Of a DNA stretch of 64,000 nt, positions 744-62,698 are shown in pieces. The stretch comes from a phage. Every line of letters begins with the position of its first letter. Positions within the stretch are counted from its first letter, which is position 1. Position numbers and translations under genes: made by a program. The stretch lies in the sequence record PZ256263.1. One strand, written 5' to 3'. The notes beneath the pieces are model-generated. The model saw only the letters and a list, made by a program, of their open reading frames with translations, had not been told where the DNA came from and made no database searches.

Positions 744-1616
744 ATGTCTAAAGTAGCAATTAACCACTTGAACAAAGCAAACGAAAGCCTTTCCTCTTTG
801 GGCTTGTCTGTTGGTAGTCCTGATGCGTGGATGGAAAACGAAAGCGCACGTAAAGGATTCAAAAACTCTGTAATGCTGGCTTGCTTGATCATTAATTCCA
901 CTGCGAACGCTTTACAGTGTGAAGATGAAAGCACGTTCAAAGAAAACGGTTTTACCGATATGCAGGACGCTATCAATTGCTACATTCAAGCAAATTTAGA
1001 TAGTTGGAATCAGAAAGATTGGCCTGAATCATGCCGCGATGTGAAAGCTGAATTATCCCGCTTGTCTGTCATGGTTGAAGCATGGAACAAGAAAAACAAG
1101 AAACAGCCAATCAAGCCTACTGTTGCAAGTAAGATTATGAAGTCTGTTAATCTGGCAAGTTATGCACTGGTTGCAGCTATTGGTGTTAGTGCACTGGTCA
1201 CATCTCTTTCTGATAAGGCTATCGCTAGTCCTACTCCTGCAACTGATGCCGCTGATGTTTTCGCTAGTTCCATCAATAAGGGTTGGATGATTTGCAACGG
1301 TGCGGATAGTGATGGAAGTACTATTGTATTAAAAATGAAGTTTAGCAACGTAACTAATGATGGCGTTCTCTTTCAGTCTAAGACACTAGACAATCAGCCT
1401 AACAATGATCTAGTTCTCAAGCGCACCGATAGTGACTCGGATATGGTTACATTTGGCACTGTACAACGTTACGAAGACGTTAAAGCTGTAACCAATCTAG
1501 TGAGTTATGGCCCGATCAATGAGTCGATGATTGCTACCACTGTTTACAATAACGCTGATAACGCTGTTTATACCGTTCACGTTAATTTAGCCAACTGTAT
1601 TAAGGCTAGTAAGTAA
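744..1616 (+). CDS. Hypothetical early protein (290 aa) with a central hydrophobic segment
   Basis: Long ORF directly downstream of the sigma70-like promoter; putative TM segment VNLASYALVAAIGVSALVTSL; no recognisable motif. Confidence 0.6.
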   Translation: MSKVAINHLNKANESLSSLGLSVGSPDAWMENESARKGFKNSVMLACLIINSTANALQCEDESTFKENGFTDMQDAINCYIQANLDSWNQKDWPESCRDVKAELSRLSVMVEAWNKKNKKQPIKPTVASKIMKSVNLASYALVAAIGVSALVTSLSDKAIASPTPATDAADVFASSINKGWMICNGADSDGSTIVLKMKFSNVTNDGVLFQSKTLDNQPNNDLVLKRTDSDSDMVTFGTVQRYEDVKAVTNLVSYGPINESMIATTVYNNADNAVYTVHVNLANCIKASK

Positions 1617-1641
1617 ATAACCTATTTTTGGGAGTGTAAAA

Positions 1642-1905
1642 ATGGCTATTAAAGAAATTAAGCTGGCTAATGGTTTTTCTTGCTTCGTTGGTCGTTCTGA
1701 AATCATGTTTAACACGCTTGATGGTCAGATAACCTTGCCTATTATCACTTTTTGCAAGATGGAATTTCAGCCTCTTAAGGATTGGTTAGCATTTGCTGAC
1801 CTTGAAATTACCCGTGAAGACTTCAAATCAATTTATATTGACGGTGATTTATCACTGGCTAACCTGCTTAATCATGGGCTAATTAAGGGTGATATTAATG
1901 GCTAA
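1642..1905 (+). CDS. Hypothetical protein (87 aa)
   Basis: ORF with GGGAG-like RBS upstream, tightly packed in the early operon. Confidence 0.5.
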   Translation: MAIKEIKLANGFSCFVGRSEIMFNTLDGQITLPIITFCKMEFQPLKDWLAFADLEITREDFKSIYIDGDLSLANLLNHGLIKGDING

Positions 1906-35045: not shown

Positions 35046-35339
35046 GTGTCAGCAGAAACAAAAAGATGTACAATTCACACTTATTGTAAATTCTGTAAAG
35101 CAGAGGGTGTAAAAAGAGTTGCAACTTTAATGACCAAGTATTCTCCAAGTAGAGGATACAGGGACCACTATAAGCACTACTCTTGTAGTGATCACTCCCA
35201 TCTATTAGAAGATACAGACCCGAATAGAACAAGGAGAGAGCATAACATCGATCTGAGAGCTACTCTCAAGGAAATGAAAAATAACTCTCGGAACAACCAT
35301 TACACTGAAGCTGACTATCAAACTTGGCTTCGTCTCTAG
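35046..35339 (+). CDS. Hypothetical Cys/His-rich protein (97 aa)
   Basis: GTG start after AAAGAGG; CxxC ... C.DH.H. Confidence 0.45.
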   Translation: MSAETKRCTIHTYCKFCKAEGVKRVATLMTKYSPSRGYRDHYKHYSCSDHSHLLEDTDPNRTRREHNIDLRATLKEMKNNSRNNHYTEADYQTWLRL

Positions 35340-35344
35340 AACAA

Positions 35345-35379
35345 AGGCTGCCTAATCAGGTGGCCTTTTCTTTTTTATA
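35345..35379 (+). terminator. Rho-independent terminator
   Basis: AGGCTGCC-taatca-GGTGGCCT stem (two G-U pairs) followed by TTTTCTTTTTTAT. Confidence 0.55.
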
Positions 35380-35408
35380 AACCAAATTAAACTTCTTAGG
35401 TAATAAAT

Positions 35409-35663
35409 ATGTCTATTGTAAAAATCGTAAATATCATTGATGTAACTCGTACCGGTAAGACTATCAGTTGGAAATTCACCAATAAGCATAGAGGTTCAGA
35501 GAACATCATTCGTTATATGATTCAACAAAACCCAAATACAGCTCGCACTAACGTACTCCTTCGAGGAGCTGATGGAAAATTTATTTCTTATAAGAATAAG
35601 AACGTAGAAAAATCTTTCCGTGTTGCAGTAGAAAACCTCATCCCATTCCCTAAAGGAGTTTAA
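35409..35663 (+). CDS. Small paralogous protein, family C member 1 (84 aa)
   Basis: Shares TARTNVLLRGADGKFISYK ... ENLIPFPKG with 35665-35949. Confidence 0.5.
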   Translation: MSIVKIVNIIDVTRTGKTISWKFTNKHRGSENIIRYMIQQNPNTARTNVLLRGADGKFISYKNKNVEKSFRVAVENLIPFPKGV

Positions 35664-35664
35664 T

Positions 35665-35949
35665 ATGAATAAGTTAGCTATGGTTCAGATTCGAGACACA
35701 TACCCTAATCGCCCAGAACAGAAACCACGTACTTGGTCTTACCTACTAGCTGAGAGTAAGACTATTGACAACTTCTCTGTAGGGATTGATACTATCCCGA
35801 CCAGTATCACTTTGCTTCCTCACAAAACAGCCAGAACTCATGTGATGTTACGAGACAGCAAAGGTAAATTTATCTCTTATCGTGATTCACGAATCAATAA
35901 TGAGATTAAATCTGCTATGGAATTTTTGATGCCATTCCCAAGAGGTTGA
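35665..35949 (+). CDS. Small paralogous protein, family C member 2 (94 aa)
   Basis: TARTHVMLRDSKGKFISYR ... EFLMPFPRG. Confidence 0.5.
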   Translation: MNKLAMVQIRDTYPNRPEQKPRTWSYLLAESKTIDNFSVGIDTIPTSITLLPHKTARTHVMLRDSKGKFISYRDSRINNEIKSAMEFLMPFPRG

Positions 35950-41223: not shown

Positions 41224-41692
41224 AGAACCTGTAGTTTATAAAGACTCTATCAGAGATCAATATAATGAGATGTTAAAGAAACAAGCTGATTCTAATCTTC
41301 GTTATCAGAGGATAGTAGAACAATCTAACTTTAAAGGTTTACTTGAATGGTAACTTATATCCTTTACTTCTTAGCTTTCTTAGGAATAGTCTTTTTATCT
41401 ATTATTCTTGAATTTGGTTTAAGTAAGTTAGTTAATTATTTAGGTAGTAAGTAATTAATATTCTTTTAAATAGAGAATCAAAGTCCCTAGGAGTCCCCAC
41501 AACCTAAATCAAGGATTCCTTAATTCTCTATTTTTATCTCGCAGGTGGCTCCTGCCCTTCGGTACTTGCAAGGGATTCTATGAATTGCCCAATGTACAAG
41601 CCTGCAAGAGTTATTCTCTAACTCTACCTTATATACATTACCGTTAGTGAGTATCTACTACCAATAAAATGATACTTATCTTACAAAAGTTA

Positions 41693-41701
41693 TAATGTAT
41701 A
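41693..41701 (+). promoter_or_regulatory. TAATGTATA motif (candidate phage-sigma promoter)
   Basis: Exact motif 60 nt upstream of the ATG at 41761, inside a 400-bp AT-rich intergenic region. Confidence 0.4.
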
Positions 41702-41760
41702 TTATACATAACCGCTCAAAGAGAGCAACAATCTATCAAATTAAATAAGGAAATTAAAAT

Positions 41761-42507
41761 ATGTCTATGATTCCAACTATCGCAACTTCTTCCCGTAAAT
41801 CCAACTACGACATCATCCCTGATGGTGAGTATGAAGCACGTATTGTTCGTGTAGTAGGTTTGGGTGTTCACAATCGTGACCCTTGGGTTGACCCGAAGAC
41901 CAAAGCAGTAACTCCTAAGAATCCAGCTTTCCGTATGGATTTGGCTTTCGAGCTGATTGGTGTTGATGCTACTGGTAAAGATTCCGATGGTAAGGCATTA
42001 GAACCACGTCCTGCTTGCCAGTTCAAGAGTTATGATGTAAACCCACGAGCTAAGAACTCTGGTATTCTTGATCTCTGCAAGATGATTGACCCAAGCATTC
42101 AAGCACTGAAAGGTGATCTGTCTTGGTTTAAGGATGTGCTGTTAGGTCAGCCTGTTAACATTCTGGTTAACTCTTACACTAACAAAGCTGGTGAAGTTAA
42201 AAACTCCATCAAGACCATTTCTCCAATCCCAACCAAATATCGTGCAGCAGTTGGTGAAGCTCGTAGCCCTCTGGTATTCTTCGAACCGTATGCTGAAACC
42301 GATGAGAACGTAGCATCCTATCAACTGATGTTCCCGTTCCAGCGCAACCTGCTTACTCAAGCTAATGACGCTAAGAACATGCCTCTGGCTGGTCGTGAAA
42401 TTACTCGTGCTTCTGAAACAGAGCAGAAAGAAGCTACCCCTTCAATCCCTACGATTGATAAAGAGCCTGCTTCTACTTACGAAGACGACAACGATAGCCC
42501 ATTCTAA
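41761..42507 (+). CDS. Putative single-stranded DNA-binding protein (248 aa)
   Basis: Acidic C-terminal tail ending ...YEDDNDSPF (compare E. coli SSB ...DDDIPF and T7 gp2.5 terminal Phe); AAGGAAA RBS; own promoter motif and terminator. OB fold not verified. Confidence 0.5.
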   Translation: MSMIPTIATSSRKSNYDIIPDGEYEARIVRVVGLGVHNRDPWVDPKTKAVTPKNPAFRMDLAFELIGVDATGKDSDGKALEPRPACQFKSYDVNPRAKNSGILDLCKMIDPSIQALKGDLSWFKDVLLGQPVNILVNSYTNKAGEVKNSIKTISPIPTKYRAAVGEARSPLVFFEPYAETDENVASYQLMFPFQRNLLTQANDAKNMPLAGREITRASETEQKEATPSIPTIDKEPASTYEDDNDSPF

Positions 42508-42528
42508 TAACTCTCCTTGTTATAGCTT

Positions 42529-42552
42529 AGCCACCTCCGGGTGGCTTTTTTC
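42529..42552 (+). terminator. Rho-independent terminator
   Basis: AGCCACC-tccg-GGTGGCT stem followed by TTTTTT. Confidence 0.7.
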
Positions 42553-42564
42553 GTTGGAGACAAC

Positions 42565-42915
42565 ATGCAAAACACATTAAGTGATAACTTAGGGTTTATC
42601 GTTTTCTCGGCTCTTGTATTCTTTGGTGGTATGAAGTTTAACGAGTACCAAACAGACAGCAGTAATCTGGACAAAGAGAAGCACCAGCAAGAGTTAGAGA
42701 TTGAAAGAAGTAGAGCAGCTGATGAAGTTGCTCAGAGGGTTCTTACCGGTTTATCTAACTGGAAGAAGAACACGGAAACCGTTTATAAAGAGATGCATTA
42801 TGAGAAAACTAAACCAGTTTTTTATAATGTCTGCGCTAGTGATGAGTATGTCAGCTTGTTCAATGAGCGACAACAGCAGGCAATCAATGCCCTTACCAAC
42901 AAACCTAAAAGCTGA
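42565..42915 (+). CDS. Putative i-spanin (Rz-like), 116 aa
   Basis: N-terminal TM LGFIVFSALVFFGG then charged helical domain; embedded lipoprotein ORF in the +1 frame. Confidence 0.45.
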   Translation: MQNTLSDNLGFIVFSALVFFGGMKFNEYQTDSSNLDKEKHQQELEIERSRAADEVAQRVLTGLSNWKKNTETVYKEMHYEKTKPVFYNVCASDEYVSLFNERQQQAINALTNKPKS

Positions 42916-43059
42916 ATGTAGGGTTGACCTGCCTCTTTTAGAAAGTGCTCAAGGAAAAGCACTAGCCACTACGTTGGAGTGGTATCAGGACCAGTACACA
43001 GAATGTGCTGCCAATCACAATGGATTGCTAGAAGCTCTGAAAGAGCGTGGAATAGAATA

Positions 43060-43060
<1 letters not shown>
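42800..43060 (+). CDS. Putative o-spanin (Rz1-like lipoprotein), 86 aa, overlapping the i-spanin
   Basis: AAAGAG RBS; signal peptide MRKLNQFFIMSALVMSMSAC with Cys, Pro-containing mature region; starts inside and extends past 42565-42915. Confidence 0.4.
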
Positions 43061-44546
<1,486 letters not shown>

Positions 44547-44556
<10 letters not shown>

Positions 44557-45158
44557 ATGGTGAGTCTAAACCTTTAGTAGTAATTCTTAATGGACCTCCG
44601 GGTTGTGGGAAAGATACAATAGCTAGTGCTTGGGTTAATGCACATTCATACCATCACAATCATTTAACCAAATCCTTCAAGGAGCCGATGTATAGAGTGG
44701 CTGCTGCTGCACTAGGAATGCCTCTAGAAAACTTCCTAGCACGCTATGAAGATCGTGAATGGAAAGAAAAATCTAGACCAGAGTGGGGAGGGAAGTCTGT
44801 AAGAGATTTGATGATTTCTACAAGTGAAGACTTCTTAAAACCTATGTTTGGCAACAATCATATGGGGAACCTCGCTGTAAAGAGCATCAAACAAGAGGAG
44901 TTAGGTCAGGATGACATTATTGTTTTTACTGACGGAGGTTTTGATGCAGAGGTACGAGAACTAGAAAAGAATTTCCATGTCCAAGTTGTCCAAGTGCTTA
45001 GAGATGGTTGCTCTTTTAATGGAGACTCTCGTTCATACATTGAAGGGGAGCAGAGAAAAACATATCTGCTGTTTAACGACTCAACTATTGAATCAGCAGT
45101 GTTAGATCTAGATTGGATTATCGCTCAAGCTCAGGATGATATTTATGGAAGAAGTTAA
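44547..45158 (+). CDS. P-loop nucleotide kinase (dNMP-kinase-like), 203 aa
   Basis: Walker A ILNGPPGCGKDT; size and layout resemble T4 gp1-type kinases. Confidence 0.55.
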
Positions 45159-61958: not shown

Positions 61959-62450
61959 TTAATATTTACCTTCGGTGTAAAGATTAGCTTCTGCAACTCT
62001 TCTATTATGAAGACCCTGACTTCTCTGCTTCTCTCCCTTGACCGTTATTTTATCCCAACGAAGAAATTCGGAATAAACATCCCCCTTAACATCTCCATTG
62101 ATTACCTTCCTTAACTTAGATGTGCTCAAAGCCCCACTGCCAACATTGAAGTTGAAAGAAGTGAGTGCATCAAACTCATGAACTAGTAAAGGAACCTTTA
62201 TGTTCTTCTGAGTAGCACGAACAGAGTCTTGTGTGTCTCTATCTAGCAGAGCTAGACAATCCTCTATAGAATACGTTAATCCTTGTCTAACCGGATAACC
62301 ATTCATATCGCGCGTAGCCCCTACACATATAGTCCAGATACCTGCGGAATCTTTATAAGCCTTTGTTCTCATACCCTCATGCTTCATGATGAATTCCATT
62401 CCAGCTGGGCTTAAGTTTAGTTGTACAGGTGGCAATGCGACGTTATCCAT
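61959..62450 (-). CDS. Endolysin, GH24 (T4-type) lysozyme (163 aa)
   Basis: FIMKHEGMRTKAYKDSAGIWTICVGAT catalytic E-D-T region and GLHNRRVAEANLY motif. Confidence 0.85.
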   Translation of the reverse strand: MDNVALPPVQLNLSPAGMEFIMKHEGMRTKAYKDSAGIWTICVGATRDMNGYPVRQGLTYSIEDCLALLDRDTQDSVRATQKNIKVPLLVHEFDALTSFNFNVGSGALSTSKLRKVINGDVKGDVYSEFLRWDKITVKGEKQRSQGLHNRRVAEANLYTEGKY

Positions 62451-62479: not shown

Positions 62480-62698
62480 TTAAGGTAGTATCTTTCTCAG
62501 AGCGTTAGATTCAGCATCAGGGCAAATAACAACTAAGTTATTTTGAATTGTTCTCTGCTTGCATTGAGAGCTAAGCTTCTCTACTGGAGCAGGGACAGTT
62601 ACTAATGGATGAACTGCGCCTACAGGAACTGCGGTGGATACCACAACACCTGCGCCTAAACATATTAAACCATATGCAGCTTGTTTCATCATTTTCAT
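62480..62698 (-). CDS. Small membrane/secreted protein next to the endolysin (possible holin or lysis accessory), 72 aa
   Basis: Basic N-terminus, one hydrophobic helix AAYGLICLGAGVVVSTAVPVGAV; GGAG RBS. Confidence 0.35.
   Translation of the reverse strand: MKMMKQAAYGLICLGAGVVVSTAVPVGAVHPLVTVPAPVEKLSSQCKQRTIQNNLVVICPDAESNALRKILP

Follow-up and report, generated by a model that had tools for sequence, protein, structure and literature searches.

A probable two-component spanin encoded apart from the holin and endolysin genes in a phiEco32-like phage genome

The locus considered here raises the question of why two overlapping genes resembling a spanin pair should lie among plus-strand genes for replication, transcription and nucleotide metabolism, far from the holin and endolysin genes of the same genome, and whether they serve lysis at all. 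It occupies positions 42565-43060 of the window, by which we mean the whole stretch of phage DNA analysed (64,000 nucleotides), and in the initial annotation it was taken as an overlapped pair of the Rz/Rz1 kind, belonging either to a split lysis cassette with separate regulation or to a module with another function. The two open reading frames (ORFs) very probably encode a two-component spanin of a phiEco32-like phage, a predicted function for which topology signals, homology and genomic context form the basis. The feature is a spanin pair that had already been catalogued in 2018, and it is both real and correctly read.

Layout, topology and families

The region 41500-44600 is 96-97% identical to the corresponding DNA of ev_rybdy3, PGN6866, MN03, phiEco32, SU10 and ~90 other phages, a match that identifies the window as a Kuravirus (Gordonclarkvirinae) genome; its orientation is opposite to that of the phiEco32 reference record. 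The features discussed below are collected in Table 1. Between the stop codon of the o-spanin gene and the endolysin and holin genes lie 18.9 kb. The endolysin also matches phrog_7 (E 4e-46) and is annotated as such in relatives, which likewise annotate the holin candidate as a holin. The coordinates confirm the initial placement of the pair on the plus strand about 19 kb from the endolysin, and the PF00959 and phrog_11161 matches agree with the initial assignment of an endolysin and a holin to the minus strand near 62 kb.

Table 1. Coordinates of the predicted features of the spanin locus and of the lysis genes in the window.
Feature	Position	Strand	Remarks
Candidate gp36-holoenzyme promoter element TAATGTATA	41693-41701	+	Perfect match; overlaps a sigma-70-like promoter
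Intrinsic-terminator-like hairpin, AGCCACC-UCCG-GGUGGCU + U6	42529-42552	+	Between gene-40 homologue and i-spanin gene
Shine-Dalgarno sequence GGAG of i-spanin gene	42556-42559	+	5 nt before ATG; invariant in the alignment
Predicted i-spanin gene, phiEco32 gp39 orthologue	42565-42915	+	ATG start; 116 aa
Predicted N-terminal transmembrane helix LGFIVFSALVFFGGM, codons 9-23	42589-42633	+	Hydropathy scan
Predicted o-spanin gene, phiEco32 gp38 orthologue, corrected start	42800-43060	+	86-aa precursor, 67 aa mature
Predicted signal peptidase II signal MRKLNQFFIMSALVMSMSA and lipobox Cys20	42800-42859	+	PS00013-type rule
Two-frame stretch (overlapped architecture)	42800-42915	+	116 nt; diversity 0.079; same overlap in phiEco32
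GH24-type endolysin, phiEco32 gp17 orthologue	61959-62450	-	163 aa; PF00959, E 3.7e-32
Holin candidate, phiEco32 gp16 orthologue	62480-62698	-	72 aa; phrog_11161 'holin', E 2.8e-50

The criteria of Summer 2007 and Kongari 2018 were applied to decide on membership of the spanin class. With respect to gene order, these ask for adjacent genes with the i-spanin first, in an embedded, overlapped or separated arrangement. In the window, as in its relatives, the genes are adjacent and overlapped in that order. The start offset of 235 nt puts the o-spanin ORF in the +1 frame of the i-spanin ORF; beyond the shared stretch, the former continues for 145 nt past the stop codon of the latter, in agreement with the layout originally proposed, in which a second ORF in the +1 frame runs past the end of the first.

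With respect to topology, an i-spanin is expected to have a single N-terminal transmembrane domain followed by a periplasmic C-terminal domain, and this is what is seen in the product of the first ORF. Its residues 9-23 have a mean Kyte-Doolittle hydropathy of 2.2, the remainder being hydrophilic, and the orthologue in phage Paul is annotated with a transmembrane domain at residues 8-23. The protein is accordingly predicted to be a type II inner-membrane protein with a helical periplasmic domain. An AlphaFold single-sequence model is all-helical (residues 3-25, 36-76, 79-91 and 93-111), with low confidence (pLDDT 56), and the coiled-coil table of Kongari et al. (PMC6139136) lists 0 segments for the i-spanin of PhiEco32 (one residue different from that of the window) and 1 segment for that of NJ01. 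Thus, of the 'membrane-anchored coiled-coil' that the initial annotation had described, the anchor is supported by hydropathy, and the coiled coil is not established by either the model or the published table. The GGAG Shine-Dalgarno sequence of this gene is the one marked in the supplement of the same study (PMC6139136).

The product of the second ORF begins with MRKLNQFFIMSALVMSMSA followed by CSMSD, with predicted cleavage before Cys20. It thereby has the signal peptidase II signal, lipobox cysteine and outer-membrane-compatible +2 residue looked for in an o-spanin, as judged by a rule of the PROSITE PS00013 type: Arg or Lys within the first 7 residues, an uncharged stretch from -5 to -10, and the lipobox M-S-A-C ending at Cys20. 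Ser occupies position +2, in keeping with an outer-membrane destination. The initial expectation of a lipoprotein signal is also upheld by the record of the phage Paul orthologue (98.8% identical), which carries the note 'LipoP SpII score 18.03, cleavage 19/20'. A lipobox scan of all ORFs of 40-250 aa, covering both strands of the 64-kb window and each potential start codon, gave the o-spanin signal as its only credible match to the rule. The one remaining match, in a 45-aa ORF with a TTG start, was discounted for want of a hydrophobic core. At least one periplasmic cysteine for an intermolecular disulfide bond is also expected of a spanin; Cys90 is the sole periplasmic cysteine of the i-spanin, the mature o-spanin has two (precursor positions 40 and 69), and all three are conserved in 9/9 of the sequences compared (window plus eight relatives, described below).

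Both proteins give full-length matches to known families. The i-spanin matches phrog_1152 'Rz-like spanin' (E 2.7e-37, residues 3-116 against positions 6-127 of a 127-position profile), which places it in the PHROG 1152 or 'JH2' i-spanin family, and is 100% identical to proteins of ShigP1 and YF01. The o-spanin matches phrog_2425 (E 3.7e-26, residues 6-84), labelled 'unknown function' in PHROGs and corresponding here to the 'NJ01' o-spanin family, and more weakly phrog_456 'Rz-like spanin'; it is 100% identical to proteins of FS2B and ev_rybdy8. On the other hand, a Pfam scan of both proteins returned no Rz, Rz1 or lysis-family match at E <= 0.1, only sub-threshold DUFs, an NCBIfam scan of both returned nothing relevant, and a sequence search of the PDB gave nothing meaningful. 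The pair is therefore a spanin by class and by its own sequence families, outside the lambda families.

Homologues of these proteins extend well beyond the phiEco32-like group. A tblastn search with the o-spanin gave 99 matches with at least 60% identity, and a DNA search likewise gave 99 records of the phiEco32-like group; a further 96 distant tblastn matches (28-40% identity) were found in phages of Proteus, Pectobacterium, Salmonella, Klebsiella and Erwinia, which brings the o-spanin homologues to 195 phage records in all. Homologues of the i-spanin were found in 435 records, including the Felixounavirus group. In those records checked that hold both homologues, the genes are adjacent and overlapping.

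The most informative of the distant relatives is the Sashavirus (9NA-like) Salmonella phage Solent, in which CPT_Solent_067/067a are homologous to the window pair over their full lengths (i-spanin, 34% identity, E 1e-18; o-spanin, 33% identity, E 6e-15). The o-spanins align from residue 1 onwards, with signal and lipobox included, as far as a common C(A)xxHNGL motif, and both mature cysteines of the window o-spanin are also present in Solent. The two pairs thus have the overlapped layout, the conserved cysteines and the NHNGL motif in common, and that of Solent also matches phrog_1152 and phrog_2425, the latter with E 8e-27. In Solent, however, the pair is annotated as i-spanin and o-spanin and ends a contiguous holin-endolysin-holin/antiholin-spanin cassette, whereas that of the window lies 19 kb off on the other strand. 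A peptidase gene immediately precedes an o-spanin homologue in Proteus Gorganvirus. It is the lysis-cassette context in distant relatives that settles the predicted function of the pair. The Rz/Rz1-like reading first put forward is well founded, given the phrog_1152 match, the Sashavirus homologues and the curated phiEco32 pair of the 'ovl' type. A literature search for experiments on phiEco32-type spanins found none, and we know of no experimental test of them.

Position apart from the holin and endolysin

In phiEco32 the holin gp16 and the endolysin gp17 are encoded between tail-fibre genes in the late cluster, and the spanins gp39 and gp38 are encoded two genes upstream of the sigma factor gp36. 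The latter is a middle-gene product, and early and middle genes run opposite to the late cluster (PMC4281155, PMC8948821); in SU10, middle genes correspond to CDS 25-68 and late genes to CDS 4-24 (PMC4281155, PMC8948821). The spanin genes would accordingly lie in the middle-gene cluster, a temporal class inferred from position only.

Middle and late promoters share a gp36-dependent element, tAATGTAtA, located 6-8 nt upstream of the start site, and one promoter location has been described between SU10 CDS37 and 38 (PMC4281155, PMC8948821). In the window, the closest promoter candidate upstream of the spanin genes is the perfect match TAATGTATA listed in Table 1, which is found ~60 nt upstream of the gene-40 homologue, where one of the three described middle promoters sits. 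With one mismatch allowed, the gp36 9-mer is not enriched in the window (20 occurrences found, 19 expected), so that the promoter assignment rests on position.

Between the gene-40 homologue and the i-spanin gene, a terminator-like hairpin is predicted to fold with -19.5 kcal/mol (z-score -2.8). Three genera share its stem, its U-tract and the downstream GGAG unchanged, with variation confined to the loop; in phage Paul, a terminator is annotated between gene 37 and the i-spanin gene. A conserved CUCUCC upstream of the i-spanin gene is able to pair with its Shine-Dalgarno sequence. Taken together, the middle cluster, the promoter of the gene-40 homologue and the conserved terminator suggest that the spanins are probably expressed at a modest level, by read-through, from mid-infection.

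It is also conceivable, though unlikely, that the genes encode a true spanin but are transcribed late, by read-through or from a late promoter that has escaped recognition; the split would then be without regulatory meaning. The presence of a terminator before the spanin genes is in keeping with this. However, the sigma factor gene nearby, which lies on this strand too, has been described as a middle gene, the cluster runs opposite to the late cluster, and the nearest upstream promoter motif occupies a described middle-promoter position. Late transcription, if true, would change a regulatory footnote only. A more elaborate reading combines deliberate temporal uncoupling, read-through synthesis in mid-infection, translation limited by CUCUCC and a second role before lysis. 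We regard this combination as improbable; such a second role might be, for example, envelope remodelling or phage exclusion.

Even less credible is the view that the pair is membrane-targeted with a role outside lysis, such as superinfection exclusion or a receptor-masking lipoprotein with an inner-membrane partner. The functions of the neighbouring genes, the opposite strand and the 19 kb to holin and endolysin would all be compatible with such a role, but homologues of both proteins are spanins within canonical lysis cassettes, and no other lipobox ORF is found in the 64-kb window to serve as the spanin. Moreover, distant spanin genes have precedents: those of T4 are not near t and e (Kongari et al., PMC6139136, Fig. 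8 legend), those of Privateer have been reported about 12 kb from the endolysin gene, and a similar separation is seen in Felix O1. The distance from the endolysin is normal for the phiEco32-like group. Of the initial alternatives, therefore, the split layout stands and separate regulation is likely, given the opposite transcription of the two clusters; another function is not needed.

Coding in both frames and the start of the o-spanin gene

Conservation was assessed in the window and eight Gordonclarkvirinae relatives of the genera Kuravirus, Nieuwekanaalvirus and Suseptimavirus, with 75-100% protein identity. Neither frame is interrupted in any of the nine sequences, so that the embedded frame, whose conservation had been proposed as a check, is kept in all relatives examined. 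The lengths of 116 and 86 aa are constant except in ECBP2 and TH43 (Suseptimavirus-type), in which the i-spanin is one residue shorter, and the lipobox cysteine at position 20 is invariant in all nine, within the pattern [MLT]-S-[AS]-C. Mean pairwise diversity at codon positions 1, 2 and 3 is 0.075, 0.068 and 0.263 in the part read only as i-spanin, and 0.174, 0.028 and 0.382 in the part read only as o-spanin; the periodicity of the latter is a clear coding signature in the o-spanin frame. Within the overlap, diversity is 0.079, compared with 0.135 and 0.196 in the two parts with a single frame, a reduction expected where two frames are constrained together. By this measure, substitution patterns show both ORFs to be coding.

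In seven relatives, an HNH homing-endonuclease gene is found inside the spanin overlap, at a site equivalent to window positions 42855-42882. The insert is carried by SU7, Bas86, Bas87 and PAS59, and KM01, EK010 and E20-1 carry a related HNH gene with 77% nucleotide identity. About 29 nt of the overlap are duplicated on both sides of the insert, and the C-terminal tail of the i-spanin is recoded. The old embedded signal peptide is left as a stub, in which the lipobox cysteine is lost or a stop codon is reached; in its place the o-spanin carries a replacement signal peptide and lipobox, e.g. MLTKKKQKSCLVILLASSLMAC followed by S, encoded in a second frame that spans the 3' end of the HNH gene. 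Insertion has thus converted an overlapped pair into a separated one, for which there is a precedent in T5 compared with Shivani and phiR201, involving a GIY-YIG gene (PMC6139136). That both spanin genes are kept despite the insertion is further evidence for selection on both. The record of Bas87 annotates the i-spanin gene as a two-piece join. The possibility that this insert is a self-splicing intron needed for the o-spanin was rejected, as the old frame terminates ahead of the lipobox and is followed downstream by a new signal peptide that is complete; splicing of the i-spanin itself may occur in Bas87.

The pair has a published history under other names. Kongari et al. 2018 (PMC6139136) included PhiEco32 in their curated database of spanins, with the i-spanin at 35417-35768 and the o-spanin at 35272-35533, as an 'ovl' pair with a 116-nt overlap and products of 116 aa and 86 aa (67 mature). 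Its i-spanin was assigned to the 'JH2' family, which also includes Felix O1-like phages, and its o-spanin to the 'NJ01' family, whose members are NJ01, ECBP2, KBNP1711 and PhiEco32; the accompanying notes state that the deposited o-spanin start was shifted upstream, recovering a LipoP signal (PMC6139136). The pairs of phiEco32 (gp39/gp38), NJ01, KBNP1711 and ECBP2 are orthologues of the window pair, with 75-100% amino-acid identity, and phiEco32-type pairs have the same lengths, overlap, lipobox position and genomic neighbours, without any difference of substance. The orthologous pair of phage Paul is explicitly annotated as i-spanin and o-spanin. Overlapping i- and o-spanins with a transmembrane domain and a lipobox have been reported for Kuravirus ZCEC16, and later Kuravirus papers also describe this spanin pair.

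It is hardly credible that the first ORF alone is real and that the true downstream gene is a 57-aa ORF starting at ATG 42887, without a signal peptide: the RefSeq annotation of phiEco32 and the records of ECBP2, XT73 and EK5 give only this 174-nt ORF, those of KBNP1711 and EP335 an even shorter one, and the Shine-Dalgarno sequence before 42800 is weak (GAG), yet the 29 codons before the internal Met are open in 9/9 sequences with the signal peptide kept and the lipobox cysteine unchanged, diversity in the overlap is depressed as dual coding predicts, distant homologues (33% identity) can be aligned from the first residue with signal and lipobox included, the HNH insertion removed the upstream part and a new signal peptide and lipobox are nevertheless in place, and the starts were explicitly corrected by Kongari et al. 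(PMC6139136). In many GenBank and RefSeq records of the group, the o-spanin start is truncated or the product is called hypothetical, and the case is a reminder that automated gene callers overlook overlapped o-spanins. Beyond annotation hygiene its significance is limited, the pair being the expected outer-membrane-disruption module of a Kuravirus phage.

Proposed lysis mechanism and known systems

In the lambda Rz/Rz1 system, spanin complexes build up harmlessly until the endolysin removes the peptidoglycan. By analogy with lambda, the 116-aa product would be anchored in the inner membrane, its helical part reaching into the periplasm, and the 86-aa product, after export, lipid modification at Cys20 and cleavage by signal peptidase II, would be sorted to the outer membrane. 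The C-terminal parts of both products would then bind to each other, forming complexes across the periplasm, which the conserved cysteine residues might stabilise by intermolecular disulfide bonds. These complexes would be inert as long as the peptidoglycan mesh is intact. Once the holin (the gp16 homologue) triggers and the endolysin (the gp17 homologue) degrades the wall, the complexes would be freed and would fuse or disrupt the outer membrane, completing lysis. Under such a scheme, spanins could be made at a modest level from mid-infection, with the late-expressed holin setting the timing of lysis. As spanins do no harm until the wall has been degraded, their co-regulation with holin and endolysin would be unnecessary. 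Their location in the middle-gene cluster is an example of the accepted view that they need no timing of their own, since it is the holin that sets the lysis clock.

Among known systems, the Felix O1 (Felixounavirus) pair ORF6/ORF7 resembles that of the window in several respects: its i-spanin also belongs to phrog_1152 (about 33% identity), its layout is overlapped too, and it is also located away from the lysis genes, adjoining genes of early or middle type, i.e. rIIA/B and polynucleotide kinase. The o-spanins differ, that of Felix O1 matching mainly phrog_4180 with a weaker link to phrog_2425, and Felix O1 and phiEco32 o-spanins were assigned to different families by Kongari et al. (PMC6139136). 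The T4 pair PseT.3/PseT.2 is of similar size (117 and 83 aa) and includes an o-spanin with predicted secondary structure, but its architecture is separated, whereas the window pair is overlapped. Lambda Rz1 has been described as short, proline-rich and unstructured (PMC6139136); about 46% of the 67 residues of the mature window o-spanin are predicted to be helical. Lambda Rz/Rz1 and the window pair have the same predicted topology and the same inferred mechanism, and in both the lipoprotein is encoded in the +1 frame. Rz1, however, is wholly embedded in Rz, whereas the genes of the window are overlapped, and sequence homology between the two systems is undetectable.

Mis-called o-spanin starts in deposited records

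In many deposited records, including the RefSeq entry for phiEco32, the start of the o-spanin gene is set at an internal methionine, which leaves a product of at most 57 aa that is devoid of a signal peptide and is called hypothetical. Such starts are found in phiEco32 (locus stretch L001) and in ECBP2, KBNP1711, EP335, XT73 and EK5 (L002, L005-L007 and L009). The o-spanin family, phrog_2425, likewise carries the PHROGs label 'unknown function'. These short, hypothetical calls are a systematic annotation error across the phiEco32-like phage group.

Coordinates of features in the window and in related loci
Feature	Sequence	Position	Strand	Remark
gp38 (o-spanin) as deposited	phiEco32, L001	4397-4570		internal-Met start
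HNH insert	SU7, L003	2806-3323		
HNH insert	Bas87, L008	1002-1519		
HNH insert	KM01, L014	about 1145-1700		
HNH insert	EK010, L015	about 1155-1710		
gp36 promoter element TAATGTATA	window	41632-41640	-	perfect copy
gp36 promoter element TAATGTATA	window	41693-41701	+	perfect copy
Near-consensus sigma-70 promoter TGGACA-18-TATAAT	window	43472-43501	+	directly upstream of sigma factor gene
Phage sigma factor gene	window	43520-44167		

HNH genes in the spanin overlap of relatives

The i-/o-spanin overlap is interrupted by an HNH homing-endonuclease gene, present as two variants, in at least seven Gordonclarkvirinae phages; the window is not among them, and its site matching the insertion lies at about 42855-42882. 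Approximately 29 nt are present twice, flanking the insert on either side. In the HNH-bearing phages the C-tail of the i-spanin is recoded, the former embedded o-spanin signal is a dead stub, and the o-spanin begins with a replacement lipoprotein signal peptide, encoded in a second frame across the 3' end of the HNH gene. HNH insertion thus converts the overlapped spanin pair into a separated pair. The Bas87 record differs in that the i-spanin is annotated as a two-piece join. A precedent exists in T5-like phages, with a GIY-YIG gene instead (PMC6139136).

The holin candidate

The 72-aa 'holin' (62480-62698, minus strand) opens with MKMMK; a hydrophobic segment comes next, ahead of VGA|V, and this N-terminus resembles a cleavable signal peptide no less than a membrane anchor. 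For a Kuravirus homologue, DeepTMHMM is reported in a recent paper to find a signal peptide only, and the Kuravirus endolysin is termed signal-bearing (SAR) there (PMC13417854); one GenBank record, that of MN03, also labels it SAR-endolysin. A second look at the holin assignment in the phiEco32-like phage group may be warranted.

Putative regulatory elements around the spanin genes

Identity in the coding DNA on either side is only ~80%, yet the intergenic segment that separates the gene-40 homologue from the i-spanin gene (42508-42564) is near-invariant over three genera. In addition to the terminator hairpin, it holds a CUCUCC (42512-42516), itself invariant, that can pair in the minimum-energy fold (z-score -2.8) with GGAGA (42556-42560), the Shine-Dalgarno of the i-spanin; this predicted pairing might limit i-spanin translation from read-through transcripts. 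Upstream of the gene-40 homologue, the two gp36 promoter elements are arranged divergently in one intergenic region; the one on the minus strand would face into the middle-gene cluster in antisense direction. The sigma-70 promoter fits that of SU10 CDS32 as described (PMC4281155).
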